Source of the DNA: Escherichia coli
GTDB taxonomy: Bacteria > Pseudomonadota > Gammaproteobacteria > Enterobacterales > Enterobacteriaceae
Length of the DNA stretch: 64,000 nucleotides
Assembly: GCF_030384885.1 (NCBI RefSeq)
Contig: NZ_CP128613.1
Direction: 5' to 3' (one strand)
The position numbers and the translations under genes were made by a program. The stretch's first letter is position 1, and every line of letters begins with the position of its first letter. The notes below the pieces were generated by a model. The model saw only the letters and a list, made by a program, of their open reading frames with translations. It had not been told where the DNA came from and ran no database searches. Shown one piece after another: positions 835-63,080 of this stretch.

Positions 835-2346
835 TTGCTTAACGCAAGGAATAAAAACGTATTGATGAACACTGGGAATTTCGAGTCGATACAAATCATG
901 ATCGCCGCGCAAGAGTGGCGTAGCCTGCCGCTGCATCTGCGTTTGTATCAGGCTTTTCGTCAGTTGGTGATTTCTGGCGCGTTGTCTGATGGCGCAAAAC
1001 TGCCGTCCGCTCGCGCACTGGCCCAGCAACTGCACCTTTCCAGAGATACCATCGAAAATGCCTATTCCCAGCTCCACCGCGACGGTTTTATGGCTCGCAG
1101 GCAGGGGGCCGGGAGTTTCGCCAGCCGCCAGGGGATACCGCATATTCAGGGCCAGCATGCGCAACCACCCTCGCCCGGACAAGTACCGGCTTTAAGCGCT
1201 CGCTGGCAGCCAATTGCCGATCGCGCAGTCTCTTTCGATGCCCGCCAGATGCAGACCTTTACGCTTGGCCTGCCGGAAACGCGAAACTTCCCGCTAAACA
1301 TTTGGCAGAACTTTTCCCGCCAGATCCAACGTGAGCAGGCGCATACGCTGATGTTAAATAGCGATCCGCAGGGCGAGCCACAGCTGCGCCAGCAAATTGC
1401 GCATTACCTTAATTTTGAACGCGGCGCGAAGGTAGATGCCGGGCAGATTGTGATTGTCAGCGGCGCACGGCAGGCGTTCTGGCTGTGCGGGCAACTGCTG
1501 GCAGAGGCCGGACAGTCGGTGGCGATGGAAAATCCGGGCTATCCCGGCGCGCGTCAGGCGTTTTCTGCCGCACAGCTTAATCTTCTTCCCGTTGAAGTGG
1601 ATGACGCCGGGATCCGGGTGGATAAACTGCCGCCCGCGCCGCTGGTTTACGTCACGCCCTCGCACCAGTTTCCTTCCGGTCATTTGCTCACGCTGGCGCG
1701 GCGTCATGCCCTGATTGCCTGGGCGCAGGCGCACAATGCATGGATTATCGAAGACGACTACGACAGCGAATTTCACTACACCAGCGCGCCCGTCGCCTGT
1801 CTGCAAGGGTTAGACTGCGAGCAACGCACCCTGTATGTCGGCACTTTCAGCAAAACGCTCTATCCCGGCCTGCGCATCGGTTATCTGGTGGTGCCGACGT
1901 CGCTGGCTGCGCACTTTGCCGCCGCGCGTAATTTGCTTGATGGCGCAACGCCTGCGTTATCCCAACTAACGCTGGCGCGATTTATCGAGTCCGGTCATTT
2001 TGCCGCCCATATTCGCAACATGCGCAGTATGTACGCAGTGCGACAGGCGAGCCTGGCAGAGGCTATTCATCAACACTTAAGTGAATGGGTCACGCCAGTG
2101 GTGACATCCGGTGGGTTACAAATGCCCTGCTGGCTGCATGAAGGTATTGATGAGCAACAGACGCTAAATGCCGCGCGCCGCGCCGGGTTAAACATCGCCG
2201 GAATGCGCCAGTTCTGGCTGACGCACCCCGCGCCCGCGGGCTGGCTGCTGGGATTTGCCGCCTTTACCCCCTACGAGATTGAACAGGGCGTCAAGCGTCT
2301 GCGGGCTGCATTATGCACTGAAAACGTGCGCCCAGCCGGGTCATAA
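835..2346 (+). CDS. MocR/GntR-family transcriptional regulator with PLP-dependent aminotransferase-like domain
   Basis: 503-aa ORF; N-terminal HTH-like segment (LPSARALAQQLHLSRDTIENAY) followed by an aminotransferase-fold domain with candidate PLP lysine (TFSKTLYPG); true start probably an internal Met near 898. Confidence 0.7.
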   Translation: MLNARNKNVLMNTGNFESIQIMIAAQEWRSLPLHLRLYQAFRQLVISGALSDGAKLPSARALAQQLHLSRDTIENAYSQLHRDGFMARRQGAGSFASRQGIPHIQGQHAQPPSPGQVPALSARWQPIADRAVSFDARQMQTFTLGLPETRNFPLNIWQNFSRQIQREQAHTLMLNSDPQGEPQLRQQIAHYLNFERGAKVDAGQIVIVSGARQAFWLCGQLLAEAGQSVAMENPGYPGARQAFSAAQLNLLPVEVDDAGIRVDKLPPAPLVYVTPSHQFPSGHLLTLARRHALIAWAQAHNAWIIEDDYDSEFHYTSAPVACLQGLDCEQRTLYVGTFSKTLYPGLRIGYLVVPTSLAAHFAAARNLLDGATPALSQLTLARFIESGHFAAHIRNMRSMYAVRQASLAEAIHQHLSEWVTPVVTSGGLQMPCWLHEGIDEQQTLNAARRAGLNIAGMRQFWLTHPAPAGWLLGFAAFTPYEIEQGVKRLRAALCTENVRPAGS

Positions 2347-3397
2347 TCTCATACGGGATGGTGTTGCAGGCAGCGGCAACCTGTTCCAGCGTCTGGCCTG
2401 CGCCAATAAATTCCACCTTATCGCCCGCTGTCGGCGTGACGGCGCTGGCATCGACCATAAAGCTGTCCATACAAACCCGCCCCAATACCGGTAACCGCAC
2501 GCCGCGCCAGCATACGCCCGCCGGAGGACGCATATTTCGCGGAACGCCATCCGCGTAACCCGCGGATATCGTAGCGATACGCAGCGGACGCGTGGCGGTA
2601 ATCGTACTGCCATAGCCAACTGGCGTTCCCGCCGGGACATCCTGCACGCGCAGAATAGTTAGCGTCAGCGTAAAAGCCGGTTTTAGCGGCCTGGAAAACC
2701 ACGGCTGGGCGACGCCAAACAGCGCAATCCCCGGACGGCAGAGATCTTCCCGCCAACCTGGTTGCAAAAACATTCCGCAGGAGTTCGCCAGCGAAAATCG
2801 GCTGCTGGGGAAAACCGTTTTTGCCTGCTGGAATAGCGCGTGTTGCGCCACATTTAACGCATGATCCGGCCTGTCGGCGTTCGCCAGATGGCTGATGATA
2901 TAGTCCGGCGCAGGCCAGTTACGCTCACGAAATATCGCCGCCAGACGCATCAGTTGTTGCGGCATCACGCCCAGCCGCGACATACCGGAATCGAGCTGGA
3001 TCATCACCGCACGCCGCTGCTGGCGCGTTTCCAGTAACGTAAGCCACGCCATCACCTGGTCAATGGAATTGAGCAATGGCGTGATCTGCTGCGCGTAACA
3101 ATACGCCATCGCCTCCGGCATAACCCCATTAAGCACTACCACCATCGCATCAGTGGGCAGGATTTTACGCAGCGCCACGCCCTCCGAAAGCTGTGCCACA
3201 AAAAAGATCCGGCAGTTCGCCGCATACAGGGCGGGCGCAATCGCCTCCGCCCCCAGACCATAGGCATTGGCTTTCAACACCGCGCCACATTGCGCAGGGG
3301 CAACATGGCGCGCCAGCGTGCGATAATTATCGACGATGGCGGCGAGATTGACGCACATAACGCCGCACGCCGCCTGGATTTCAGTAGAAGTCATCAT
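2291..3397 (-). CDS. alanine racemase family protein (PLP-dependent)
   Basis: 368-aa ORF with PLP-lysine motif VLKANAYGLG typical of alanine racemases; start overlaps the stop of the upstream SHMT-like gene. Confidence 0.7.
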   Translation of the reverse strand: MMTSTEIQAACGVMCVNLAAIVDNYRTLARHVAPAQCGAVLKANAYGLGAEAIAPALYAANCRIFFVAQLSEGVALRKILPTDAMVVVLNGVMPEAMAYCYAQQITPLLNSIDQVMAWLTLLETRQQRRAVMIQLDSGMSRLGVMPQQLMRLAAIFRERNWPAPDYIISHLANADRPDHALNVAQHALFQQAKTVFPSSRFSLANSCGMFLQPGWREDLCRPGIALFGVAQPWFSRPLKPAFTLTLTILRVQDVPAGTPVGYGSTITATRPLRIATISAGYADGVPRNMRPPAGVCWRGVRLPVLGRVCMDSFMVDASAVTPTAGDKVEFIGAGQTLEQVAAACNTIPYEIMTRLGARFQCIMQPADA

Positions 3398-4632
3398 TGA
3401 TAAGACAACGGGTAGCGGTTGGTTAGTTGTATTACTTTTTGCTCAATATCGGCGCAAATGCCTGCGATATCTGACGAGTTGATGGCGAAAATGATTTCAC
3501 TTATCCAGTCAGCAATAAGCACAAAATCATCCGCCTTCATCCCACGCGTGGTGCAGGCCGCGCTGCCAATACGGACCCCGGAGGTAATCGACGGCGGCTG
3601 CGGATCGCCCGGCAGGGTGTTTTTATTGACCGTGATCCCCGCCAGTTCGAGAAAGTACTCCACCTGTGCGCCGGTTAACCCCTGCGGGCGCAGGTCGATA
3701 ATCCCCAGATGGCAGTCGGTGCCGCCCGTTAACAGCGTCAGACCGCGCTGCGCCAGTTGCTGGCACATCGCCTGCGCATTGTCGATAACCTACCCGGCGT
3801 AACGTTTAAATTCTGGTTGTAATGCCTCGCCAAGCGCCACCGCTTTCGCCGCGATAACGTGCATCAACGGCCCGCCCTGCAAACCGGGAAAGATGGCGCT
3901 GTCGATTTTTTTCGCAAGCCTGGCGTCATTGGTGAGGATCATGCCGCCGCGCGGCCCGCGCAACGTTTTATGCGTGGTGGTGGTGACCACATCAGCATAC
4001 GCCAGCGGCGAAGGAAAACAGCCGCCCGCCACCAGCCCGGCAAAGTGCGCCATATCCACCAGCAAAATGGCATCAACGGCATCGGCAATGCGGCGAAAAC
4101 GGGCAAAATCATAGTGGCGTGGATAAGCCGATCCTCCGGCAATAATTAACCGTGGGCGCTCGCGTAGCGCGATCATCTCGACCTCATCCATATCAATCAG
4201 GCCACTATGGGCATCGACGCCATAGTGAAAGGCGTTAAACCATTTGCCGGATTGATTGACCGGAGAACCGTGCGTGAGATGCCCGCCGCATTGCAGGCTC
4301 ATGCCAAGAATTTTGTCGCCGGGCTTCAGCAACGCCAGATAGACCGCCTGATTCGCCTGGCTGCCGGAGTGAGGCTGCACATTGACGTAACGCGCGCCAA
4401 AGAGCTGCTGCGCGCGGGTTATCGCCAGCATCTCAACCTCATCAATAAACTTACAGCCGCCGTAATAGCGATGCTGGTAATAACCTTCGGCGTATTTATT
4501 GGTTAACACCGACCCCTGCGCCGCGAGAACGGCGGGGCTTACGAAATTCTCCGAGGCAATCAGTTCCAGCGACTGCTGCTGGCGCTGTTGCTCCTGGTTA
4601 ATCAATGCAAAAAGTGGATCGTTATTTATCAT
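3394..4632 (-). pseudogene. serine hydroxymethyltransferase (GlyA-like) paralog interrupted by an in-frame TAG at 3790-3792
   Basis: ORFs 3790..4698 and 3394..3768 are in the same frame; both halves align to SHMT ([17 protein letters not shown]-lysine motif; GITVNKN); the stop sits where GlyA has a Gln in the YQQQV region. Confidence 0.65.
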
Positions 4633-4864
4633 GCGCTTCCCCCGCAAATTCATCATGCGATGATTTTCGCAGGGAAAACCTCGTCCGCACCCTGCCACTT
4701 TTTAGACTGAGCGCAGACCACCTATGTCGTTTTACTTAAAAGAAGAGGGAAGAAGGCTCCAGGCATCTCCATATGCGATTCTGGTTGGTAATACATCATA
4801 TTCCAGCTGCTCTTATCCGCCTACGTTATTGCATATACGGATAAGGCAGCCTCAATACGTACTT

Positions 4865-6430
4865 TTACTTGATATCTTTCACGCGCATACCGTTGATCTG
4901 TTCATCCGTGATGGTATTACCCGCTTTAAAGTAATCAACCACCGCGTGATAAACGTAATAACCGCCCGTCGTATTGCGCGCTTTACCCTCGGTAAACGCG
5001 GTAAAACCATCTCCACCATCAGCAAGGAAACTCTGAGTGGCAATGTGGTAAACCGTCGCATCTTCAATCGGTTCGCCATTCAGAGTCAGCGAGATAACCC
5101 GCTGACCAACCGGCTTGCTGCTGTCGTACTTCATTTCCAGGCCTTTCGATACCTGTAAAACGCCATTACTTAAACTTGCGCCGTGTTCCATCAAACTGCG
5201 TAATTGTTTACCCGTGAGTTCCATCGTCACCAGTTCGTTGGGGAACGGGAAGGTACTGATGACGCCACCCATCGTAATTGCACCCGCCGGGATCTCATTG
5301 CGGATACCGCCAGAGTTGGTTAACGCCAACTGGGTATTTTTACCCGCCGCTGCCAGCAAAGCGTCCGCCGCCAGATTCCCGAGAGAAGCCGATTCACCAT
5401 AGGCACGTTTCAATTCAACTGGCGATTGCGCCACCGTTTGCTGCACGACTTCATCCAGCTTTTTATTCCAACTATCAATCACCTGTTTTGTTTGCGGATC
5501 GGGCTTCCACTCGTCGGCGTAAAGGGTTTTAAGCTCGAAGTTTTTCACCGTAAAAGTGTGCGGCTTCTCTTTGTAGTCTAGAACCAGTTTACCCACATCA
5601 ATCCCGCCGCTGTCAGTGGAGAGGATTAACGTATTGCCGACTTTAATCGGTTCCGGCGTACCCACATGTGCATGCCCGGTGATCAAAATATCCAGCCCTT
5701 TCACCTGACTTGCCGTCTGAATATCTTTATCCAGTGCGCGGCGCACATCTGTGCCCCCCATACTGGACTGGCGGGCCGGAACACCTTCGTGAATCAGCGC
5801 AACGGTCAAATCAACCTTGCCTTTGAGTTCATCGATATAACGTTGTAGCCATTTAATTTCATCACGCGCCTCAATACCCACTCGCGTTGCCGCAGATACC
5901 GTATCATTAAAGGCAAATACACCGTGCAAACCAATCACGCCAATTTTCACGCCGTCTTTTTCAATGATGGTATAGGGCTTATCCCAGAATGATTTACTGC
6001 TGTTCTGATAAAAAACATTACCCTGCACAATCGGGAATTTTGCCTGACTCAACTGTAATAACGTATTGTCCCAGCCGTGATCAAATTCATGATTACCTAT
6101 AGTGGCCGCATCGAACGGCATGGTATTCATAATATCGATAATCGCCTTGCCTTTAGTCAGGCTGCTAATATACGGCCCGGTAAAATAGTCACCCGCATCA
6201 AAAAACCAGGTCGCTTTGTTTTTAGCTTTTTCTTGTTTAACAAGCGTAGTGATATTTGCCCAGCCGCCAATATCTCGTTTACCGTCAGCAATCCACGGCA
6301 CTTTATAAGGCTCTACATGTGCATGGAGGTCGTTGGTATAAATGATGGTGACATCTTTGGCGCAAGCCCAAAACGGCAGTGTTAATGCGATACCCGCAGC
6401 AAGCATTTTAATTTTCATAAACAATCCCAT
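4865..6430 (-). CDS. secreted bifunctional metallophosphatase / 5'-nucleotidase (UshA family), paralog 1
   Basis: 521-aa ORF; signal-peptide-like N-terminus; metallophosphatase motifs [23 protein letters not shown]; C-terminal 5'-nucleotidase domain. Confidence 0.8.
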
Positions 6431-6477
6431 CCAGTGAGATAAAGGATTGCTACATTACGTTCTGAAAGGCTTTTTTA

Positions 6478-6493
6478 TGTGAGAATACTCACA
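6478..6493. promoter_or_regulatory. perfect consensus CRP-type site TGTGA-N6-TCACA in divergent promoter region
   Basis: sequence TGTGAGAATACTCACA read directly between the divergent nucleotidase gene (4865..6430) and the zinc-ribbon gene (6551..7678). Confidence 0.4.
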
Positions 6494-6550
6494 TCCAGAG
6501 GCGATAACTGTAGGACAAAATCAACGACCTTATGAAATCGTTGGTGATAT

Positions 6551-7678
6551 ATGTCAAATCTGTTTGCGATTAATGTCTGTAAAACGTTCGGTTGTCGAAA
6601 TTTGGGATTGGCCTCATCGGAAGATTACAGTTGGCCAGACTATAAACTGGGTTTTCCGGCACTGCACTGCCAGGCATGCGGAAGTTACCCCCCTTTGTTT
6701 GATGAACAACAATTTCGTGACTGGTTGTCAGTTCACATGACTGCGTGTGCCATAGAAACAGGGCATTTTTGTCCATCATGCTATTGTAAAGAAAAGATTT
6801 TTTATGGCCACAACCCGCAGGGAACACAACGCGTTCAATGCCGTTCATGCAAAAAAGTCTGGACTCCGAAACAGCAGCCAGCAAGAGAAATTACGTATCC
6901 CCAGTCCATTGAAACCGTTCAACTGTTCATGCCCTTTCAAGGAGCCAGCGCAGTACAAAAGCTCTATGTTTTAGTCAGTCTTGACGCCACTCGTGGCAAC
7001 ATCCTTCATCTCTCCACGAATTATACGCAACATCAGACAGGAGACAGTCTGCGGTACAGTTACAGAGGCAATACAGAACCAACTGAGCACCATAGCGATA
7101 TTGCGCAGAGGGTAGATATGCGTGAAGCACAATTCTTGCGCCGGAGCCAGTTCGATGAAATTCAGTATGGCAGTGCTGTGCTCAAGCGCAACGGCAAGGG
7201 AGCCATACTACGCCCGGTTATCACGGCACACGGGCATTTCAGAATACTGAAAATCCGCTTTCCACATGTCAAAACGCATATCATTTCACACGAATGTTTT
7301 CTGAGAGGCGCAATTATTACAGCCTGGGCAGATCAGTTCCGCCAACAACAAGGCGAACTTTGGTTCGTAGAGGAAGAAATCAGCGACCGTAATGCTGATA
7401 TTCCCTGGCATTTTCAGGGAACGACATACCATGGTTGGTGGCAAAATCAGTGGCAACGCTGGGGGCAGGGGAATAACAGCAAGATGGTCTGCCTGCTCAC
7501 AGGAGTCTCCTTAGAAAGGGGCGCAAATGTTTCTCTGGCAACCAGTCGTTGCTTTATCACATGGCTGACAGACCAACACGACTTTACCCAAAGCGCGTTA
7601 TTATCCGCAGGTCGCGTAACGAAAATGCTGACCTCACTGGCGTTAAAATACAATGAATCGCTCACTCCATCTTGTTAG
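6551..7678 (+). CDS. hypothetical protein with N-terminal Cys-rich zinc-ribbon (IS1 InsA-like / transposase-type zinc finger)
   Basis: 375-aa ORF; Cys pattern CPSCYC...QRVQCRSCKKVW resembles InsA-type zinc ribbons; the rest has no motif I recognise. Confidence 0.45.
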   Translation: MSNLFAINVCKTFGCRNLGLASSEDYSWPDYKLGFPALHCQACGSYPPLFDEQQFRDWLSVHMTACAIETGHFCPSCYCKEKIFYGHNPQGTQRVQCRSCKKVWTPKQQPAREITYPQSIETVQLFMPFQGASAVQKLYVLVSLDATRGNILHLSTNYTQHQTGDSLRYSYRGNTEPTEHHSDIAQRVDMREAQFLRRSQFDEIQYGSAVLKRNGKGAILRPVITAHGHFRILKIRFPHVKTHIISHECFLRGAIITAWADQFRQQQGELWFVEEEISDRNADIPWHFQGTTYHGWWQNQWQRWGQGNNSKMVCLLTGVSLERGANVSLATSRCFITWLTDQHDFTQSALLSAGRVTKMLTSLALKYNESLTPSC

Positions 7679-7907
7679 TCAATACACTCGACAAACGACC
7701 ATAAATTAATGGGATCACTATTTCTCATTTAATTAAATATATGAATGTATGACTGAAAAATATAATCACAGTCAATGTTTAATTAATAACATTATTTGTT
7801 ACTAAGATCACATAATACTTTCCTGACCTATGTTTACATAAAAATAAGACACGGTGTTCCTTTTATTTAAATAATTCAACCAATGTAACAACCCCTATCA
7901 AGGAGGG

Positions 7908-9461
7908 ATGATGAGAACTGTATTTACGACTTTATCAGTCATATTCAGCGTGATGTTTTCTCACAGTATACTAGCTCAGGACGTTACTATTTATTATACG
8001 AATGATATTCACGCACATGTCAATCCGGCAAAAATTCCCGCTGTTGATAAGAACAGACTTGTAGGTGGTATGGCTAATATTGCAGGCATCGTTAATGAAG
8101 CGAAGAAAAAAAACAAAGATGTCTTTTTCTTTGATGCAGGCGACTATTTTACCGGTCCGTATATCAGTACCCTGACCAAAGGTGAAGCTATTATTGATAT
8201 CATGAACACCATGCCCTTTGATGCGGTGTCCGTTGGTAATCACGAGTTCGATCACGGCGTGCCCAATATGGTATCTCAGTTATCAAAAGCAAAATTCCCC
8301 ATTCTGCTGGGAAATATTTACTACACCGATACAAATAAACCAGTTTGGGATCATCCGTGGACCATTATCGAAAAAGATGGTTTAAAGATTGGTGTGATTG
8401 GATTGCATGGTGCATTCGCTTTCTATGATACAGTCGCGGCAAAAGCACGTGAAGGCGTAGAAGCCAGAGACGAAATTAAATATTTAAATAAAGCACTTGC
8501 AGAATTAAAAGGTAAAGTCGACATTACCGTTTTGCTAATTCACGAAGGTGTTCCGGCGCGTCAATCAAGCTTTGGTAGTAAAGATGTGGAGCGGCTACTA
8601 CAGGCAGATATTGAGACAGCTAAAAAAGTGAATGGTGTTGATGTCTTAATTACCGGTCACGCACATGTCGGAACACCGCAACCAATAAAAGTTAATAACA
8701 CATTAATTGTATCTACCGATGCATACGGCACCGACATCGGAAAACTTGTGCTTGATTACAATCCGAAAACAAAGAAAATTGATAGTTATAATGGTGAGTT
8801 AATCACCATCTTTGCAGATCAATTTAAACCTGACACCATCGTTCAAAATACTATCGATAAATGGAGCATAAAGCTTAACAAAATAACACAGGAAGTTGTC
8901 GGCCATTCTCCCGTAGTTTTAACACGTGAGTATGGCAGTTCTTCTTCTACCGGTAACCTTATTCTAGATGCAATGATGGAAAAAACACCTGATGCCATTG
9001 CCGGATTTCAAAATAGCGGTGGGATGCGAGCTGATTTTCCTAAAGGTGATATCACACTGGGAGATGTTATTAGCACATTCCCCTTTAATAATGACCTCAT
9101 CGAGATGGATTTGACGGGCCGCGATCTCAAATCATTGATGACGCATGCAACCAATCTAACTAACGGTGTGTTACAGGTTTCAAAAAGCGTTGCGGTTGTC
9201 TATGACAGCAAAAAACCACTCAACCAACGGTTAATCTCTTTCACCATTAACGGCAAACCCGTGGAAGATAATCAAACATATCGTATTGCCACGCACTCCT
9301 TTTGTGCCAGTGGTGGTGACGGTTTTGAAGCATTTTTGAATGGAAAAAATGTGAAGACGATACCGGGAACAACCTCGGCGGAATCTATCATCGATTATTT
9401 CAAAAATCATAAACCTGTCACCCCAGACTTAACTAAACGAGTCATGGACGTCGCCAAATAA
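7908..9461 (+). CDS. secreted bifunctional metallophosphatase / 5'-nucleotidase (UshA family), paralog 2
   Basis: 517-aa ORF; signal peptide; same metallophosphatase motifs as paralog 1 ([23 protein letters not shown]). Confidence 0.8.
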   Translation: MMRTVFTTLSVIFSVMFSHSILAQDVTIYYTNDIHAHVNPAKIPAVDKNRLVGGMANIAGIVNEAKKKNKDVFFFDAGDYFTGPYISTLTKGEAIIDIMNTMPFDAVSVGNHEFDHGVPNMVSQLSKAKFPILLGNIYYTDTNKPVWDHPWTIIEKDGLKIGVIGLHGAFAFYDTVAAKAREGVEARDEIKYLNKALAELKGKVDITVLLIHEGVPARQSSFGSKDVERLLQADIETAKKVNGVDVLITGHAHVGTPQPIKVNNTLIVSTDAYGTDIGKLVLDYNPKTKKIDSYNGELITIFADQFKPDTIVQNTIDKWSIKLNKITQEVVGHSPVVLTREYGSSSSTGNLILDAMMEKTPDAIAGFQNSGGMRADFPKGDITLGDVISTFPFNNDLIEMDLTGRDLKSLMTHATNLTNGVLQVSKSVAVVYDSKKPLNQRLISFTINGKPVEDNQTYRIATHSFCASGGDGFEAFLNGKNVKTIPGTTSAESIIDYFKNHKPVTPDLTKRVMDVAK

Positions 9462-9495
9462 AATATCATTTATCAGTCTATTTATTTAACAAGGA

Positions 9496-11121
9496 ATGCG
9501 AATGAAAACAGTGCAGCGTACTTTACTTGCCGCAACATTGCTGACTATTTTTTCGGTCTCGGTCATGGCGCAGGATGTCACGATTATTTATACAAATGAT
9601 CTTCACGCTCATGTGGATTCTTATAAAGTGCCGTATATCGCAGACGGAAAACGCGACATTGGCGGCTTTGCCAATATATCTACTTTAGTAAAACAAGAGA
9701 AAGCGAAAAATAAAGCCACCTTTTATTTTGATGCTGGAGACTATTTCACCGGCCCTTATATCAGCAGTCTGACAAAGGGCGAAGCAATAATTGACATTAT
9801 GAATACCATGCCTTTTGACGCAGTATCAATCGGTAATCATGAGTTTGACCATGGCTGGGATAATGCCCTGCGACAATTAAGCAAAGCGAATTTTCCTGTT
9901 TTATTGGGCAATGTTTATCATAAAGAGAGTGAAAAACCCTTCTGGAACAAGCCCTACACCATCCTGGAAAAAGATGGCATCAAGATTGGTATTATTGGGC
10001 TACACGGCGTATTTGCATTTAATGATACGGTCTCGGAGCTCTCTCTCCAGGGACTCGATAATGACAATAATAACCGCTTTGATAAATCTTCCGAGACCCT
10101 TAAGAATCAGGGGATTGAAGCACGTGATGAAGTGAAGTATTTGCAGCATTATATCGACGAGTTACGTGATAAGGTTGACCTCACTGTGGCGCTGGTTCAT
10201 GAAGGCGTTCCGGCGCGTCAGTCCAGCATTGGCAATACAGATGTTAGACGCGCTCTTGATAAAGATATTCAAACCGCTAGCAAGGTGAAAGGATTGGATA
10301 TTCTGATTACCGGGCATGCCCACGTCGGAACGCCAGAACCAATCAAAGTCGGCAACACCTTAATCCTTTCGACTGATAGTGGCGGTATCGATATTGGTAA
10401 ATTAGTCCTTGATGTCAACCCTACAGCTCGTACCCATAAAATGAAGAGCTTTGAGCTGAAAACAGTTTATGCCGATGAATGGATACCCGATCCAACGACA
10501 CAAAAAGTTATCAATGGCTGGAATAAAAAACTGGCGGATATTGTACGCCAACCAGTGGGTGAATCATCGATTGCATTAACTCGCGCCTATGGTGAGTCAT
10601 CGCAACTAGGCAACCTGTTTACCGATGCAATGCTTGTCGCTGCTCCGACTGCACAGATTGCATTGATAAACTCCGGCAGCTTACGTGCGGATATAAATGC
10701 AGGCACGATTACCTTTGGCGACATTACCAGTACATTCCCCTTCAAGAATGAACTTACTGAAATGGATCTCAGCGGTAAGGATCTGCGTAACCTACTGGAA
10801 CACGGGGCATCGCTTACCAATGGCATCCTGCAAATGTCAAAAGGCGCAGAAATGCGCTATACCCCGCAGAAACCAGTAGGTCAGCGCATAGTATCTTTTA
10901 AAATTAATGGTGAAGAGATCGTTGATACGAATATTTACCATGTTGCAACAACGACTTTCCTTGCACTGGGGGGCGATGGTTTTCTGGCATTCAAAGAAGG
11001 GAAAAATGTTCAGGTCCGCGCCGGAAAAAACATGTCCGATGTCGTGATCGATTATTTGAAGAAAGGCCACAAGATTACGCCTGCACAGGTAAATGAAATG
11101 CGGGTGGACGTTAGCAAATAA
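9496..11121 (+). CDS. secreted bifunctional metallophosphatase / 5'-nucleotidase (UshA family), paralog 3
   Basis: 541-aa ORF, closely similar to paralog 1 by eye, with a short inserted segment (LQGLDNDNNNRFDKSSETLKNQG). Confidence 0.8.
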   Translation: MRMKTVQRTLLAATLLTIFSVSVMAQDVTIIYTNDLHAHVDSYKVPYIADGKRDIGGFANISTLVKQEKAKNKATFYFDAGDYFTGPYISSLTKGEAIIDIMNTMPFDAVSIGNHEFDHGWDNALRQLSKANFPVLLGNVYHKESEKPFWNKPYTILEKDGIKIGIIGLHGVFAFNDTVSELSLQGLDNDNNNRFDKSSETLKNQGIEARDEVKYLQHYIDELRDKVDLTVALVHEGVPARQSSIGNTDVRRALDKDIQTASKVKGLDILITGHAHVGTPEPIKVGNTLILSTDSGGIDIGKLVLDVNPTARTHKMKSFELKTVYADEWIPDPTTQKVINGWNKKLADIVRQPVGESSIALTRAYGESSQLGNLFTDAMLVAAPTAQIALINSGSLRADINAGTITFGDITSTFPFKNELTEMDLSGKDLRNLLEHGASLTNGILQMSKGAEMRYTPQKPVGQRIVSFKINGEEIVDTNIYHVATTTFLALGGDGFLAFKEGKNVQVRAGKNMSDVVIDYLKKGHKITPAQVNEMRVDVSK

Positions 11122-11135
11122 TAAAAAAATTATAA

Positions 11136-11166
11136 TGCCATTCATTCACTGAATGGCATTATTTTC
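11136..11166 (+). terminator. rho-independent terminator after nucleotidase paralog 3
   Basis: inverted repeat AATGCCATTCA-ttcac-TGAATGGCATT followed by a T-run. Confidence 0.6.
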
Positions 11167-11198
11167 TCTAAATCAACAATAGATAATGAGATATATTT

Positions 11199-12059
11199 AT
11201 GTGTATAAAAAAGCACGGGATAGCTTTATCGATTCTATTAATACCTTGCATTGGAAACGCTCAGAAAATTAAAAGTGAGGAAGGCTGGTTACATCAAAGC
11301 TTGAATGTCATTGGTCGCACAGACTCTCGCTTTGGCCCAAGGCTGACTAACGACCTCTACCCTGAATATACTGTAGCAGGAAGAAAAGACTGGTTTGATT
11401 TTTATGGTTATGTTGATCTACCAAAATTCTTTGGCGTCGGCAGTCACTATGATGTTGGGATCTGGGATGAGGGCTCACCACTATTTACGGAAATAGAACC
11501 TCGGTTTTCCATTGACAAATTGACCGGATTAAATCTTGCGTTCGGCCCTTTTAAAGAATGGTTCATTGCAAACAACTATGTCTATGATATGGGTGACAAC
11601 CAGTCATCCCGGCAAAGTACATGGTATATGGGGCTTGGTACAGATATCGACACGGGTCTACCAATTAAGCTTTCTGCCAATATATACGCCAAGTATCAGT
11701 GGCAAAACTATGGTGCCGCTAATGAAAATGAATGGGACGGATATCGATTCAAAATAAAATATAGCATTCCTCTTACCCATTTATTCGGAGGGCGATTGGT
11801 ATACAATAGTTTTACTAACTTTGATTTTGGATCCGATCTTGCGGACAAATCACACAATAATAAACGAACCAGTAATGCTATTGCTTCAAGCCATATCCTT
11901 TCCCTGCTATATGAACACTGGAAATTTGCATTTACACTACGTTATTTTCACAACGGTGGACAATGGAATGCTGGGGAGAAAGTTAACTTCGGAGATGGTC
12001 CATTTGAATTAAAAAACACAGGATGGGGAACCTATACTACTATTGGTTATCAATTTTAA
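11199..12059 (+). CDS. nucleoside-specific outer-membrane channel, Tsx family (paralog of tsx)
   Basis: 286-aa ORF with signal peptide; long conserved blocks shared with Tsx ([15 protein letters not shown]; [26 protein letters not shown]); ends in aromatic residue typical of beta-barrels. Confidence 0.85.
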
Positions 12060-12240
12060 ATCAGGTGATGTTTTAGATATTTTTACTTAATGCCATTTTG
12101 TAATTGTCATAAATAACTTCACCATTCACACTGTGAATTCATCGCTCAACACAAAAGCCCCCTTATTACCGGGGCACTGACCAAAGGCAAAATGACAATC
12201 AATCACCACCTCCGCAGGAGGTGGTTTAGAGGTGACAACA

Positions 12241-12268
12241 AAAGCTGGCAACTGCCAGCTTTTGTTCA
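12241..12268 (-). terminator. rho-independent terminator downstream of metL
   Basis: palindrome AAAAGCTGGCAACTGCCAGCTTTT followed by a T-run on the minus strand, just after the metL stop. Confidence 0.6.
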
Positions 12269-12275
12269 ATAATCA

Positions 12276-14708
12276 CTACAACAACTGCGCCAGACGGTTA
12301 ATATCCGACTGAATCGCCCCGGCGGTGACGTCGCGCCCTGCGCCTGGCCCACGGATCACCAGCGGGTTGTCGCGATACCAGCGGCTTTCGATGGCAAAGA
12401 CGTTATCGCACGGTAGTAGTGATGCCAGCGGATGGTCTTCTCGCACCGCTTCCACGCCTACTCGCGCTTTGCCGTTAGCATCGAAACGCGCCACGTAGCG
12501 CAACACCAGCCCCATTTCACGGGCCGCTTCCAACCGTTGTACCATCTGCTCATTAAGTTCATCGCCATTTTCAAAGAAATGGTCGATGCTGCCACCTTCG
12601 CAATGGGTTGGCACCAGTGATTCAACACGCACCTGGTCCGGTTCAATGTTGTAACCCGCTTCACGCGCCAGAATCACCAGCTTGCGCATCACATCTTTGC
12701 CGGAGAGGTCATCACGCGGGTCAGGTTCAGTTAAGCCCTGCTGCCACGCCTGATCCACCAGCTCAGTAAACGGCACGCTACCGTCGAATTGCAGGAACAG
12801 CCAGGAGAGCGTGCCGGAGAAGATCCCGCTGATCGACAAAATAGTGTCGCCGCTGTCGATCAGATCGCGCACGGTATGGTTGATCGGCAAACCTGCGCCG
12901 ACGGTGGCGTTGTATAGCCAGTGACGCCCGGTTTTTTCGAACGCGTCGTGGATCTGTCGATATTTATTGCTGTCGCTGGCTCCCGCCAGTTTGTTGGCAC
13001 TGATGACGTGGAAACCGTGGCTGGCGAAATCGAGATACTGATCAGCAAGCTGCTGGCTGGCAGTAACGTCCAGCACCACTAAATCATCATACGGATGGGC
13101 ACGCATCCACAGGAACAGCGACTCTTCATCCTGTTCGACGGCTTCATCATTAAAGAAGGCTAGCGCACGGCTGGCGTCCAGCCCGTCATAGCTCAACAGG
13201 CTGCGACGGCTGTCCACCACGCCTGCCAGCACAAATTCAAAGCCGGTGCGCGCCGAGAGCGTGCTCTGCTCACGGGCGAACAGTTCCAGCCAGCGGGAAC
13301 CGATATTGCCCTTACCGAACAATACCAGGCCGATGCGTTTTTCTGCGCGGAAGACGGACTGATGCAGCCCCTGAATCAGGCTTTCGGTAGGTCCGGTACG
13401 CAGTACTGCCACCAGGCTGATGCCGTCATCGGACTGCCAGGTAAATTCGACCGGCTGGCCTTTCAGTTGCTGCCAGAAGCGGTGGCAATGCAGCGGGTTA
13501 CGGGTGACGCCTGCACCAACCATCGCCACCAGCGCCAGCCCCTGACGCAGGCGCAGTTCGCCAGGTAATCCTGCTTCGTCGAGGATTTTCAGCGCACTAT
13601 CGGCCACTTCCGAGGTGTAGCAAAATTGCAGCAACTGGCGATCGTTATGCACGCCAACCGCCAGTGGGCGCACCTGAGCACGTTTCAGGATTTGGTCGAT
13701 CTCTTTATGCGCCAGTTTGAAATCCTGACTGGCGGGCACCTGAAACTCAATCAAACAGACATCATCGTGGCTGGTGACAATACGCGCGCCAGTACCGGAA
13801 GCCAGCACGCGTTCAATGCGCGTGGAACCTTGATCCGGCGTGTAGCTACAGCGCAGCTGCAGGTCGATTTCACTGCCAGAAACTGGCTGTAAAGTACGGG
13901 CGTGAAGAACGGGGGCCGCCAGACGCGCCAGTTCACTGGCTTCATCAAGACGCAGCAATGGCAGCAGGCAGGCATCTTTCACTTTACGCGGGTCAGCGCT
14001 GTATACCCCGGCGACGTCGCTCCAGATGGTTACGCGGGAAACTCCCGCCAGCGCACCGATTTGTGTCGCGGAATAGTCGGAACCGTTACGCCCCAGCAGC
14101 ACCGTTTCACCGGCGTTGTTACGGCTGATAAACCCGGTCACCACCAGACGTTTGCCCGGATGTTGTACCAGTAGCTGTTGCAGCAACGGGTAAGAAAGCC
14201 CTTCATCAACCTGCGGCTGCGCGGCGCGTTCAGCGCGTAAAAACTCGCGGGCATCAAGCCAGGCCGCAGGCAATCCTTGTTGATTAAGTACCGCAGACAT
14301 CAGGCGCGCCGACCACACTTCACCGTGGCCCACCACTTCCGCATACACCGCATCGTTAATACCGCTGTCGAGCAGCGCCGCCAGGCGTTCCAGATCGCTG
14401 ACAAAAGCGCTAATGAGGCTATCGGCTTCTTCGGCGGGTAGCAGGCCGCTAATCAGATCGCACTGATAGCGACGCAGCGTTTGTTGAACCTGATGCGCAG
14501 AGAGACGATCGGTCTGGCTTAGTTTCAACCAGTTAATCAACTGGTTAGTGGTGCTACCGGCGGCGGAAACCACCATCATATCGTCAGGCTGAGAGTACTC
14601 CGCCATAATGCCCGCGACACGCAAATAACACTTCACATCAGCCAGACTACTGCCACCAAATTTATGCAGTTGACGACCTTTCGCCCCTGCCTGCGCAATC
14701 ACACTCAT
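12276..14708 (-). CDS. metL: bifunctional aspartokinase II / homoserine dehydrogenase II
   Basis: 810-aa ORF recognised as MetL; immediately downstream of metB as in the metBL operon. Confidence 0.95.
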   Translation of the reverse strand: MSVIAQAGAKGRQLHKFGGSSLADVKCYLRVAGIMAEYSQPDDMMVVSAAGSTTNQLINWLKLSQTDRLSAHQVQQTLRRYQCDLISGLLPAEEADSLISAFVSDLERLAALLDSGINDAVYAEVVGHGEVWSARLMSAVLNQQGLPAAWLDAREFLRAERAAQPQVDEGLSYPLLQQLLVQHPGKRLVVTGFISRNNAGETVLLGRNGSDYSATQIGALAGVSRVTIWSDVAGVYSADPRKVKDACLLPLLRLDEASELARLAAPVLHARTLQPVSGSEIDLQLRCSYTPDQGSTRIERVLASGTGARIVTSHDDVCLIEFQVPASQDFKLAHKEIDQILKRAQVRPLAVGVHNDRQLLQFCYTSEVADSALKILDEAGLPGELRLRQGLALVAMVGAGVTRNPLHCHRFWQQLKGQPVEFTWQSDDGISLVAVLRTGPTESLIQGLHQSVFRAEKRIGLVLFGKGNIGSRWLELFAREQSTLSARTGFEFVLAGVVDSRRSLLSYDGLDASRALAFFNDEAVEQDEESLFLWMRAHPYDDLVVLDVTASQQLADQYLDFASHGFHVISANKLAGASDSNKYRQIHDAFEKTGRHWLYNATVGAGLPINHTVRDLIDSGDTILSISGIFSGTLSWLFLQFDGSVPFTELVDQAWQQGLTEPDPRDDLSGKDVMRKLVILAREAGYNIEPDQVRVESLVPTHCEGGSIDHFFENGDELNEQMVQRLEAAREMGLVLRYVARFDANGKARVGVEAVREDHPLASLLPCDNVFAIESRWYRDNPLVIRGPGAGRDVTAGAIQSDINRLAQLL

Positions 14709-17136: not shown

Positions 17137-17250
17137 ATGATGAAAAAAATAATTCCCGCCGTAGTCTGTTTGTTGCTTTGTAGTTGCACGACCTTTCCGC
17201 AAGCTGTCGCTCCGGCAGGGAAAGATTACGAAAGCCCGCTCCCAGCAAGG
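17137..17250 (+). other. lipoprotein-like ORF fragment running into the ISAs1 element
   Basis: ORF 17137..17514 begins MMKKIIPAVVCLLLCSCTT (signal peptide with lipobox-like LCSC) and then overlaps the 3' end of the transposase gene on the opposite strand. Confidence 0.25.
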
Positions 17251-18480
17251 ACTGACGCCAGATACTTTCTGTCCATGGCTGCTTTTCGCATCTTACGTCT
17301 TAACCCTGCCTTGAATACCTTATCATTCGTTAAAATATTAATAGCGATGTGCCGTATCCCTGAAAATAATTCTGCGGCGTTTCCTCTTCGTATTTTGCAG
17401 TCGTCTTCATTCATTACCACGTCCAGACGCCAGTGCAGCTTATTCTCCACGTGCCAGTGGTTTCGGATTGCTGTGGCGAACTTTTCTGCGGTTAAATCAG
17501 CAGAACTGATATAATATCTGACCGTCATTTCTGGCTCTTTCTTTTGTTCTGCTATTATTGACCGAAAGGAGAATGCCACGCATAATTTCTTCAGTCCTTT
17601 CCATTCAAACGTGAAATCAATAAGTTCATCACGGACATCGCAAACAATATGAAGACGGATTTCTTCTCTGCCGTGACTCTTTTCACTCATTGCGTAACTG
17701 TCATGCTCTGGATTATTTAATTCTTTCAGCGGAAATTTTTCCTCGAAGGCTTTATTTAGCCGCCCCTGGTTTCCTTTTACAGCGAATACATAATCACCGC
17801 CCTGTTTTTGTATCTTCTCTGCAATATCTTTCTGGCAACCCATCGCATCAGTTGTGATGATTTTTCCTTTAATATCCAGCATGTTAAGAAGTTCAGGGAT
17901 AGCTGTAATTTCATTGGATTTCTCATCCGTCCTGATCTGTCCGATGACCAGACTGTGCATTGTTGAGAATGCACTAATGACATGAATCGCTCCCCTGCGG
18001 CGACTCTTGTCATAAGAATGCCGGAGTGTTTTTCCATCAATTGCGATGACGTCTTTATCATCTGAAGTATGGCAATCTCGCATCCAGTTAATAAAGCACT
18101 CGTGAAATTTTGAAGGACTGATACAGGATACAACTCTGGCGATGGTATCGTGAACAGGAATACCATTTTCAAAATCACCATATTGTTTTAAAAAATCGCG
18201 ATGTGCTTCCCCAAAATCCTCTATATGTTCCCAGCCTTCTGCACCAGAAATAACGGCGCAAATAGTCAACAGTAGAATATCCGATAATTTATGTTCCACT
18301 TTCCAGGTTTGTCTGTAATCGGGGATAATAGAAATATGTTCCATCAATTTTTTAAGTTCCATTCTTTTCTCCTTAATTATGTAAGGAGTATTTGATCATG
18401 TATAAGCAATAAAAAAACAGCTTCAGGCAATGAGGAATATCTCAATTTTTAAACATAAAATGCGAATTGTTTAGTACAAA
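17140..18480 (-). mobile_element. ISAs1-family insertion sequence (H-repeat element); ends approximate
   Basis: single transposase ORF filling a segment of about 1.3 kb, typical of H-rpt elements; terminal repeats not determined. Confidence 0.6.
17226..18362 (-). CDS. ISAs1-family transposase (H-repeat-associated protein)
   Basis: 378-aa ORF recognised as the H-repeat (H-rpt) protein found in Rhs elements. Confidence 0.85.
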
Positions 18481-19111: not shown

Positions 19112-19320
19112 ATGTTGACCACTGACGAATGGGGTAGTTACGCTAGAGAGTTACCAAAGGAGAAGCATCTGACTGGTAAGATTTTTACTCAGCATATTGA
19201 GCGTAACAATCTGACCCTGAGAACCCGAATCAAACGTCTGGCCCGCAGAACCATCTGTTTCTCGCGTTCTGTAGAACTTCATGAAAAAGTCATCGGTGCT
19301 TTTATCGAAAATATATGTTC
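19112..19320 (+). pseudogene. IS1-family transposase (InsB-like) C-terminal fragment
   Basis: ORF 19112..19426 contains TDEWGSYARELPK...FTQHIERNNLTLRTRIKRLARRTICFSRSVELHEKVIG, similar to the C-terminal part of IS1 InsB; no N-terminal part. Confidence 0.6.
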
Positions 19321-19395
19321 TACTAATTGGAGTCATCACCCTTCTGATGAGCTTTCCTTGGATGATTACCAGACTGAATACATAGCCAAAGATTT

Positions 19396-62243: not shown

Positions 62244-63080
62244 TTAATTATGAATCAAACGCTGCGGATGGGTATAAACCGTTGCCCGACCCGGCTTACA
62301 AAAGCCCACCAGCGTCAAATTACAGCGCTCAGCCACTTCTACGGCAAGCGTGGTCGCGGCAGACACCGCAAACAAAATTTCTACGCCGCACATCGCTGAC
62401 TTTTGCACCATTTCATAACTGGCACGACTGGAAACCAGCACCGCACCTTGATGCCAGCTTTCCCCTTCTTGTGACCGGCGGCCTAACAGTTTATCCAGCG
62501 CCACATGGCGACCCACGTCTTCATGCCCGCCTACCAGTTCGCCAGATGGCAACATCCAGGCAGCGGCGTGAGTACAACCAGTCAGTTGCCCCACTGGCTG
62601 GAAATCATTGAGATGGCGTAATGCATCATCCAGTTTGTTGAGATCAAATGTCTGAGTGAACGGCAGCGGCTGCACCGGTTTACCGATGTCATTAAGTTGC
62701 TCCACGCCGCACACGCCACATCCCGTACGTCCCGCCAGTGCCCGACGACGCTCCTTCAACCCCATAAAGCGGCGGCTGGAAAGCTCAATTTGCACTTCCA
62801 GACCATTACAGGAAGGAACGACATCCATGCCAAAGATATCGCGCGGACTTTCGATAATCCCCTCGGAAAGCGAAAAACCGAGCGCAAAGTATTCAAGGTC
62901 TTTGGGCGACGCCATCATCACCACATGCGAAATGCCGTTGTAGACCAGCGCAACGGGAACCTCTTCCGCCACCTCATCTAACCGTGGGTGTTGTAAATCG
63001 TCACGCCGCCATAACTCAATTTGACGAACACCTGTGACATTTGTCACATTTTTGATTTCTTTTTGCTGTGTTTTTTTCAC
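62244..63080 (-). CDS. fdhD: formate dehydrogenase accessory sulfurtransferase FdhD
   Basis: 278-aa ORF recognised as FdhD. Confidence 0.95.

Follow-up and report, generated by a model that had tools for sequence, protein, structure and literature searches.

The gene cluster between metF and metL of some Escherichia coli strains raises the question of what three secreted 5'-nucleotidases and a second Tsx-type nucleoside channel are doing at one place, and why a Cys-rich protein should sit among them. We studied the cluster in a stretch of 64,000 nucleotides from contig NZ_CP128613.1 of assembly GCF_030384885.1, hereafter the window, and refer to the genes as nt1, nt2 and nt3 (the nucleotidases, nt1 divergent and the other two in tandem), tsx2 (the channel) and ZnR (the Cys-rich protein). 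The five open reading frames were confirmed at the coordinates collected in Table 1, the span 4865-12059 running from stop codon to stop codon, and family matches agree with the gene contents that a sequence-only reading of the window had described, including the three nucleotidase paralogs. That reading had also supposed the cluster to be absent from K-12, and this is the case; metF and metL are only about 350 bp apart there, without any cluster gene in between.

We propose that the cluster is a catabolite-controlled module for scavenging nucleotides and nucleosides with ZnR as its regulator, a reading to which, taken as a whole, we give about an even chance. That the enzymes and the channel by themselves serve scavenging appears highly probable; for a regulatory role of ZnR by itself we see the balance as roughly level. 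The enzymes and the porin add little that is new, since annotation already covers them, a crystal structure exists for nt1 and a scavenging function has been proposed in print. The new point concerns ZnR, a partner of nt1 that derives from a transposase and is probably a regulator. We regard it as a candidate regulator because of its divergent synteny with nt1, the conserved intergenic region between the two genes and the known role of the related InsA protein of IS1, which is a DNA-binding autorepressor.

The synteny was followed in a scan of one genome per species with the closer ZnR subfamily, which gave 36 loci, 35 of them informative (L027 is cut by the end of its contig). An nt1 ortholog was found divergent from ZnR and about 130-145 bp upstream of it in all 35. 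The pair was located at metF-metL in 23 of the 36 loci, covering Escherichia, Citrobacter, Pseudocitrobacter, Klebsiella, Kosakonia, Phytobacter, Superficieibacter, Kluyvera and Salmonella (S. enterica subsp. arizonae). The other 13, L027 included, had no metF or metL within reach, and six of these showed extra nucleotidase and/or tsx genes in variable order. Citrobacter freundii and Klebsiella pneumoniae likewise hold the nt1/ZnR pair between metF and metL, and the same divergent pairing is seen in Vibrio taketomensis (29% identity). Distant ZnR homologs (26-29% identity) are divergent from other sets of genes; one from a NupC-type carrier and a purine/uridine phosphorylase (PNP), one from a phosphopentomutase (deoB)-like enzyme, a phosphorylase and a NupG-like symporter, and one, in Salmonella, from the genes of a porin, of an acid phosphatase resembling AphA and of a class II cyclic-nucleotide phosphodiesterase. 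In Salmonella serovar Give (L008) no gene is called in the nearly 1 kb (6014-7000) that separates the ZnR homolog from the porin gene, and a decayed gene is possible; with an IS3-type transposase 3 kb off, this version of ZnR may belong to a mobile or accessory stretch of DNA.

The intergenic region shared by nt1 and ZnR is strikingly conserved across 27 aligned loci. It contains a conserved block and a candidate CRP site, which matches TGTGA-N6-TCACA perfectly in E. coli and Citrobacter, with the right half-site TCACA invariant in the 27 loci, and which has its centre 65-67 bp from the start codons of both nt1 and ZnR. Of the inverted repeat CAACGA-N10-TCGTTG next to ZnR, AAATCGTTGGT is invariant in the same loci. 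Allowing one mismatch at most, seven CRP-like sites were seen in the whole window against 1.8 expected, and the corresponding regions of distant ZnR homologs have CRP-like sites as well. Upstream of nt2 we detected a CRP-like site with one mismatch (7797-7812) and a promoter-like match (7846-7875). A search for Pho boxes with up to three mismatches gave none in the promoter regions of the cluster, and no convincing operator was found that the nt1/ZnR intergenic region would share with the DNA upstream of nt2. It should be noted that the window holds a second perfect CRP consensus, TGTGACATTTGTCACA at 63033-63048, which is unrelated to the cluster. An RNA hairpin sequestering the ribosome-binding site of ZnR was considered as well and found no support; its fold z-score was -0.75, and its 5' arm varies over the 27 loci with changes that are uncompensated in the invariant 3' arm. 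An Rfam scan of 4500-12400 at E<=0.1 returned no match.

ZnR has two four-Cys zinc ribbons (C10/C15/C40/C43 and C74/C77/C97/C100), the second of which is InsA-like, and a C-terminal domain with the RNase H-like fold of DDE transposases and integrases; the AlphaFold2 model made from 52 family members reached a predicted local distance difference test score (pLDDT) of 93.7 and a predicted template modelling score (pTM) of 0.93. Searches with the single protein gave weak matches to InsA/IS1 zinc ribbons (Pfam E 0.043; NCBIfam E 4e-4) and, among the PHROGs, only a weak zinc-ribbon 'transposase' match, and no relative was found when solved structures were searched with its sequence. The family profile aligns to the zinc ribbon and helix-turn-helix (HTH) of IS1 InsA with an hhalign probability of 97%, and an InsA-type zinc ribbon is detected at E<=1e-3 in 8 of the 52 family members. 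The HTH that follows the zinc ribbon is kept in distant members and deleted in the ZnR of the window and its enterobacterial relatives from E. coli, Klebsiella and Citrobacter. Against the IS1 transposase model, which has a cut-off of 100 bits, ZnR scores 20.4 bits and other family members 21-38 bits. The 52-sequence alignment shows no invariant or near-invariant Asp; conserved are the eight zinc-ribbon Cys, R198, P222, H229, H247-E248, W297 and W301. Terminal inverted repeats were not found around ZnR, the only flanking inverted repeats being two CRP-like palindromes, and in 1,844 E. coli genomes ZnR is at one place per genome. A ratio of nonsynonymous to synonymous substitution rates (dN/dS) of 0.10-0.24 indicates purifying selection along with fast evolution.

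ZnR clearly descends from an IS1-like transposase yet does not qualify as an IS1 transposase itself, and from its sequence it is probably a domesticated, catalytically inactive form. The label 'zinc-ribbon protein' of the sequence-only reading under-reads a protein that is transposase-derived and tightly coupled to nt1. The family comprises 123 representatives at 50% clustering, occurs in K. pneumoniae, Citrobacter and one third of E. coli, and goes by the database names 'cytoplasmic protein', 'IS1 family transposase' and 'IS1/IS1595 zinc-binding domain protein'; our search of literature and databases found no characterisation of ZnR. Further, we speculate, rating the chances a little short of even, that ZnR founds a family of domesticated IS1-like DDE transposases in Enterobacterales and Vibrionales, exapted as transcription factors of scavenging operons. 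The proposed targets of such a family would be the 5'-nucleotidase/Tsx, nupC-PNP, deoB-PNP-nupG and porin-phosphatase-phosphodiesterase operons, and the inactive RNase H-like domain may have been reused for ligand sensing or oligomerisation. Two E. coli alleles of ZnR (6551-7678 in the window and 6701-7831 in L002) have 72% amino acid identity with a synonymous divergence (dS) of about 1.9, against 98.5% identity and a dS of 0.15 for nt1 of the same two; this contrast points to allelic lineages of long standing or, alternatively, to a recombination event whose breakpoint lies within or close to the intergenic region.

Table 1. Features of the cluster, with positions counted from the first nucleotide of the window.
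Feature	Position	Strand	Remarks
nt1	4865-6430, PGAP start 6418 (517 aa)	minus	Secreted 5'-nucleotidase; NCBIfam, PDB, PGAP
nt1/ZnR divergent control region	6419-6550		Strong conservation across genera
Conserved block TTACGTTCTGAAAG	6455-6468		In nt1/ZnR intergenic region
Perfect CRP consensus TGTGAGAATACTCACA	6478-6493		In nt1/ZnR intergenic region
Inverted repeat CAACGA-N10-TCGTTG	6522-6543		Abuts ZnR ribosome-binding site
ZnR (Cys-rich protein)	6551-7678	plus	375 aa; 14 Cys, 10 within the first 100 residues
nt2 upstream region	7679-7907	plus	AT-rich, GC about 0.36
nt2	7908-9461, PGAP start 7911	plus	Secreted 5'-nucleotidase paralog
nt3	9496-11121, PGAP start 9502	plus	Secreted 5'-nucleotidase paralog
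Hairpin between nt3 and tsx2	11132-11162	plus	13-bp stem; pattern match only
tsx2	11199-12059	plus	Second Tsx-family outer-membrane nucleoside channel

The three nucleotidases match 5'-nucleotidase/UshA/YfkN-type NCBIfam models at E 1e-44 to 1e-58, and against the UshA equivalog model (NCBIfam PRK09558) nt1, nt2 and nt3 score 152, 165 and 156 bits, below the cut-off of 600 bits; by sequence they are a separate subfamily and not UshA orthologs. The best solved matches are 3IVD/3IVE ('Nucleotidase'), followed by the 5'-nucleotidase of T. thermophilus (2Z1A), human CD73, UshA and NadN, the UshA structures reaching an E of only about 1e-30. About 98% of residues 23-521 of nt1 are identical with 3IVD_A (1111 bits), which makes nt1 the ortholog of the crystallised protein, and nt2 matches the 3IVD/3IVE chain at E 3.5e-190. 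We take these entries to be c4898 of E. coli CFT073, solved by structural genomics with uridine/cytidine bound; a literature search for c4898 and 3IVD found no relevant publication or biochemical characterisation. A survey of ushA-like genes (PMC10454023) does not cover the subfamily of nt1, nt2 and nt3.

Full-length alignments, and Pfam on orthologs, show the two-domain architecture of an N-terminal calcineurin-like Metallophos and a C-terminal 5_nucleotid_C domain. The sequence-only reading had pointed to the catalytic residues as the place where its assignment could go wrong, and these are intact; the metal and catalytic motifs NDxHxH, DAGD, GNHEFD, IHEG and GHAH and the substrate motifs NSGGxR, FPF and GGDGF of the C-terminal domain are invariant in all three paralogs, and align with the equivalent motifs of 2Z1A and CD73. 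Mutual identity is 54-65% (nt1 to nt2 56%, nt1 to nt3 65%), and nt3 carries an Asn/Asp-rich insertion of 23 residues. Judged by inspection, the N-termini resemble signal peptides for signal peptidase I, with a basic start, a hydrophobic core and A-x-A before (A/Q)(K)DVTI, and a periplasmic location appears likely for all three. That nt1 might be a lipoprotein was considered and rejected, because the Cys preceding the cleavage site varies, being Ser in Citrobacter. A dN/dS of 0.02-0.06 indicates purifying selection on nt1, and with an amino acid identity of 87-90% between E. coli and Klebsiella or Citrobacter its conservation is close to that of MetL (91-94%).

The product of tsx2 scores 492 bits against the NCBIfam Tsx model (cut-off 311) and aligns with Tsx (PDB 1TLW) over residues 28-286 at E 1.3e-114 and 64-65% identity. 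It is clearly of the Tsx family, but the similarity, which the sequence-only reading had called high, is only moderate. Since the canonical tsx is found elsewhere in the same strain (as in 5,423 of 5,426 complete E. coli genomes), tsx2 is a true second copy. Tsx is an outer-membrane channel and the receptor of phage T6 and colicin K. The reported determinants of T6 reception are residues 198-207, N249 and N254 of Tsx (PMC6499177), and in tsx2 residues 202-206 are deleted, which shortens the segment by five, residues 198, 200 and 207 are substituted and N254 is replaced by Pro, with N249 kept. Because the deletion, the substitutions and N254P hit these determinants, a role of tsx2 as a T6-type receptor seems unlikely, and the earlier thought that a second copy might affect phage sensitivity is weakened; the altered loop rather suggests a nucleoside channel out of reach of T6-type phages. 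The hairpin in the 77 bp that separate nt3 from tsx2 is symmetrical, hence its terminator-like score on both strands; it may be an attenuator within the operon or an element for processing or stabilising the mRNA, and may set the ratio of nt3 to tsx2 expression.

In the mechanism we suggest, nucleotides would enter the periplasm across the outer membrane via general porins and be dephosphorylated there by nt1, nt2 and nt3, presumably with differing substrate preferences. The tsx2 channel would make the outer membrane more permeable to nucleosides present at low concentration and perhaps to related compounds, and the cell's own carriers of NupC/NupG type in the inner membrane would import the nucleosides released. 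The sequence-only reading had the order as dephosphorylation followed by uptake through the porin. The scavenging part of this is natural and has been independently proposed for the locus (PMC12928451), but the topology is not right; the porin would act before or in parallel with hydrolysis, because Tsx is in the outer membrane and the enzymes are probably periplasmic, and nucleosides released there would not enter the cell by way of Tsx. Expression is probably catabolite-repressed. ZnR would bind the nt1/ZnR intergenic region, perhaps at CAACGA-N10-TCGTTG, as a transcription factor specific to the module and would work together with CRP and cyclic AMP at the predicted site 6478-6493.

Several observations weigh against this proposal. 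The loss of the HTH leaves DNA binding by ZnR to the zinc ribbons, which we consider a real difficulty, and the repeat next to the start of ZnR might serve translation instead of being an operator. The CRP-like site upstream of nt2 has a mismatch and an awkward distance to the sole promoter-like match, and two ZnR members of the most distant branch (P0163 and P0194) have no nucleoside genes nearby. Further, the closer ZnR subfamily keeps D145, D202 and E248, and it should be noted that the loss of the DDE triad was assessed by conservation across the family and the register of secondary structure rather than by structural superposition; no residue-level alignment was obtained between the C-terminal domain and IS1 InsB, as hhalign aligned the zinc ribbon and HTH only.

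The residues kept in the closer subfamily bear on the idea that ZnR is a relic or still active IS1-like transposase with nt1, with or without nt2, nt3 and tsx2, as its cargo, so that the linkage would be one of co-mobility. Several unrelated sites in chromosomes carry the module, some genomes have it twice, some members are named as IS1 family transposases and the fold is that of a transposase. The family nevertheless stays at 20-38 bits where IS1 requires 100 and has no family-wide Asp, there is one copy per genome in the 1,844 E. coli genomes with no terminal inverted repeats, the metF-metL position is stable over many genera under purifying selection, and the other nucleoside operons to which distant members are linked have no cargo in common with this one; we find co-mobility quite unlikely. 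ZnR might also be a cytoplasmic protein that binds nucleosides or nucleotides or processes nucleic acids, for instance a sensor or an enzyme based on the RNase H-like scaffold, and not a DNA-binding regulator. The lost HTH fits this, and the conserved R198, H229, H247-E248, W297 and W301 could form a ligand pocket, but divergent genes with a conserved shared intergenic region are the classic layout of regulator and target, the ancestral InsA is a DNA-binding repressor and a conserved acidic triad is missing. We hold this alternative to be unlikely.

Regarding the enzymes, periplasmic 5'-nucleotidases release inorganic phosphate, as is established for UshA, and the ZnR relative of Salmonella adjoins an acid phosphatase and a phosphodiesterase, so the cluster could be meant for acquiring phosphate by organophosphate scavenging in the manner of the Pho regulon, and not for catabolism of carbon and nucleosides. 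Neither promoter region has a Pho box within three mismatches, however, and what is found instead is a perfect conserved CRP site; other ZnR relatives have genes for nucleoside phosphorylases and carriers as neighbours, which suggests that it is the nucleoside moiety that is used. The probability of a phosphate function is in our judgement small. Smaller still is that of a virulence or defence trait, in which the paralogs would break down nucleotides of signalling or immunity in the host (extracellular ATP/adenosine, cyclic dinucleotides, NAD) or phage-related ones; the sequence-only reading had speculated about signalling and phage-related nucleotides. Relatives in the superfamily do so (CD73, NadN and ecto-nucleotidases of Gram-positives), and many extraintestinal pathogenic (ExPEC) and avian pathogenic (APEC) strains carry the full cluster. 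The PADLOC defence models gave no match to the five cluster proteins, leaving the speculation without support; by inspection of the signal peptides the enzymes appear periplasmic and not surface-anchored, the core pair is common among Enterobacteriaceae that are not pathogenic and the regulatory signature, with CRP, is catabolic. We keep to catabolite-controlled scavenging as the preferred explanation.

Among 5,426 complete E. coli genomes the nt1/ZnR pair is present in 1,838 (34%), and the full set of five genes, as annotated by PGAP, in 658 (12%), always at the metF-metL locus; K-12 and O157:H7 are among those without pair or full set. The GC content of nt1 and ZnR is 0.48, near the genome average, and that of nt2, nt3 and tsx2 is 0.40-0.44. 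Because of its shared metF-metL site across genera and its near-average GC content, nt1/ZnR looks like an old pair of the Enterobacteriaceae which was lost in many E. coli lineages including K-12, and nt2-nt3-tsx2 looks like a later addition of lower GC content. The word 'island' used by the sequence-only reading thus suits the latter three genes but not the apparently ancestral pair. Two nt1/ZnR modules each were observed in E. coli SCPM-O-B-8794 (L023 and L029), Escherichia sp. MOD1-EC7003 (L022 and L047) and Citrobacter sp. wls619 (L037 and L051), one at metF-metL and the other elsewhere with extra nucleotidase and tsx genes. In addition, 2 of 1,844 nt1/ZnR matches are on records classed as plasmid (e.g. 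NZ_CP170376.1, 169 kb), which could be mis-assigned chromosomal fragments or a real transfer of the module.

To the right of tsx2 the window continues with metL, metB and metJ; metF is outside it, to the left of its first nucleotide. Of the intergenic DNA, K-12 and the window have only the metF-proximal 162-171 bp in common, and beyond this stretch a search for cluster remnants in K-12 found none, the remainder being K-12-specific and including a palindrome like those of the repetitive extragenic (REP) type. In this strain an extra high-GC module, missing in a typical long-form strain (L017), is found between metF and nt1. It consists of a hypothetical protein (40-783) with a weak PHROG 'kinase' match, a MocR-type pyridoxal phosphate-dependent regulator (865-2346) and, on the minus strand, an alanine racemase (2291-3397) and a pseudogene of serine hydroxymethyltransferase that has a stop codon inside its frame (3394-4653). 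The GC content reaches 0.55-0.60 over about 1000-4500, and the first 1 kb has 0.39. Further right, a gene for an ISAs1-family transposase by yiiX (17226-18362) and, nearby, a fragment identical to the C-terminal part of the IS1H transposase (19112-19327) indicate more rearrangement immediately right of the met genes.

What ZnR offers is an intact and conserved protein with a specific and ancient genomic tie to the catabolism of nucleotides and nucleosides. If it is a regulator, it would be a tractable bacterial case of a transposase domesticated into a transcription factor, among very few DDE transposases of bacteria turned into host regulators, and would define a new regulon for breakdown products of extracellular nucleic acids in the gut. 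The labels 'cytoplasmic protein' and 'IS1 family transposase' would then have to be corrected.

Compared with known systems, the nucleotidases share two domains, motifs and signal peptide with UshA and the wider 5'-nucleotidase family (2Z1A, CD73, NadN and the C-terminal half of YfkN), but they form a distinct subfamily far below the UshA cut-off, and unlike nt1 with its 3IVD/3IVE entry the 54-65% identical paralogs nt2 and nt3 have no structure of their own. The tsx2 protein is homologous to Tsx (PDB 1TLW/1TLY/1TLZ) over its full length with barrel and core conserved, and differs in the surface segment 198-207, five residues shorter, and in Pro at position 254. The same locus was described as 'GR 31 (metL..metF)' of APEC BEN2908 and other ExPEC (PMC12928451, 2026), with four metabolic open reading frames read in silico as nucleotide degradation and nucleoside transport; the metabolic table and the discussion of that paper cover these four and not ZnR, and its passages on GR 31 do not deal with synteny across genera or with the regulatory region.

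With InsA/InsAB' of IS1, ZnR and its family have in common the InsA-type four-Cys ribbon, the HTH in most members and the DDE-transposase fold. Unlike IS1, ZnR has an extra N-terminal zinc ribbon, no conserved Asp and, in the subfamily of the window, a deleted HTH, and it is single-copy, without terminal repeats, stable in position and far below the cut-off of the IS1 model. As for regulation, the nearest parallel is the CRP/CytR nucleoside regulon (tsx, deo, udp, cdd, nupC and nupG), which resembles the present module in related gene functions and in the consensus CRP site; the difference is that this module brings its own, unrelated candidate regulator.

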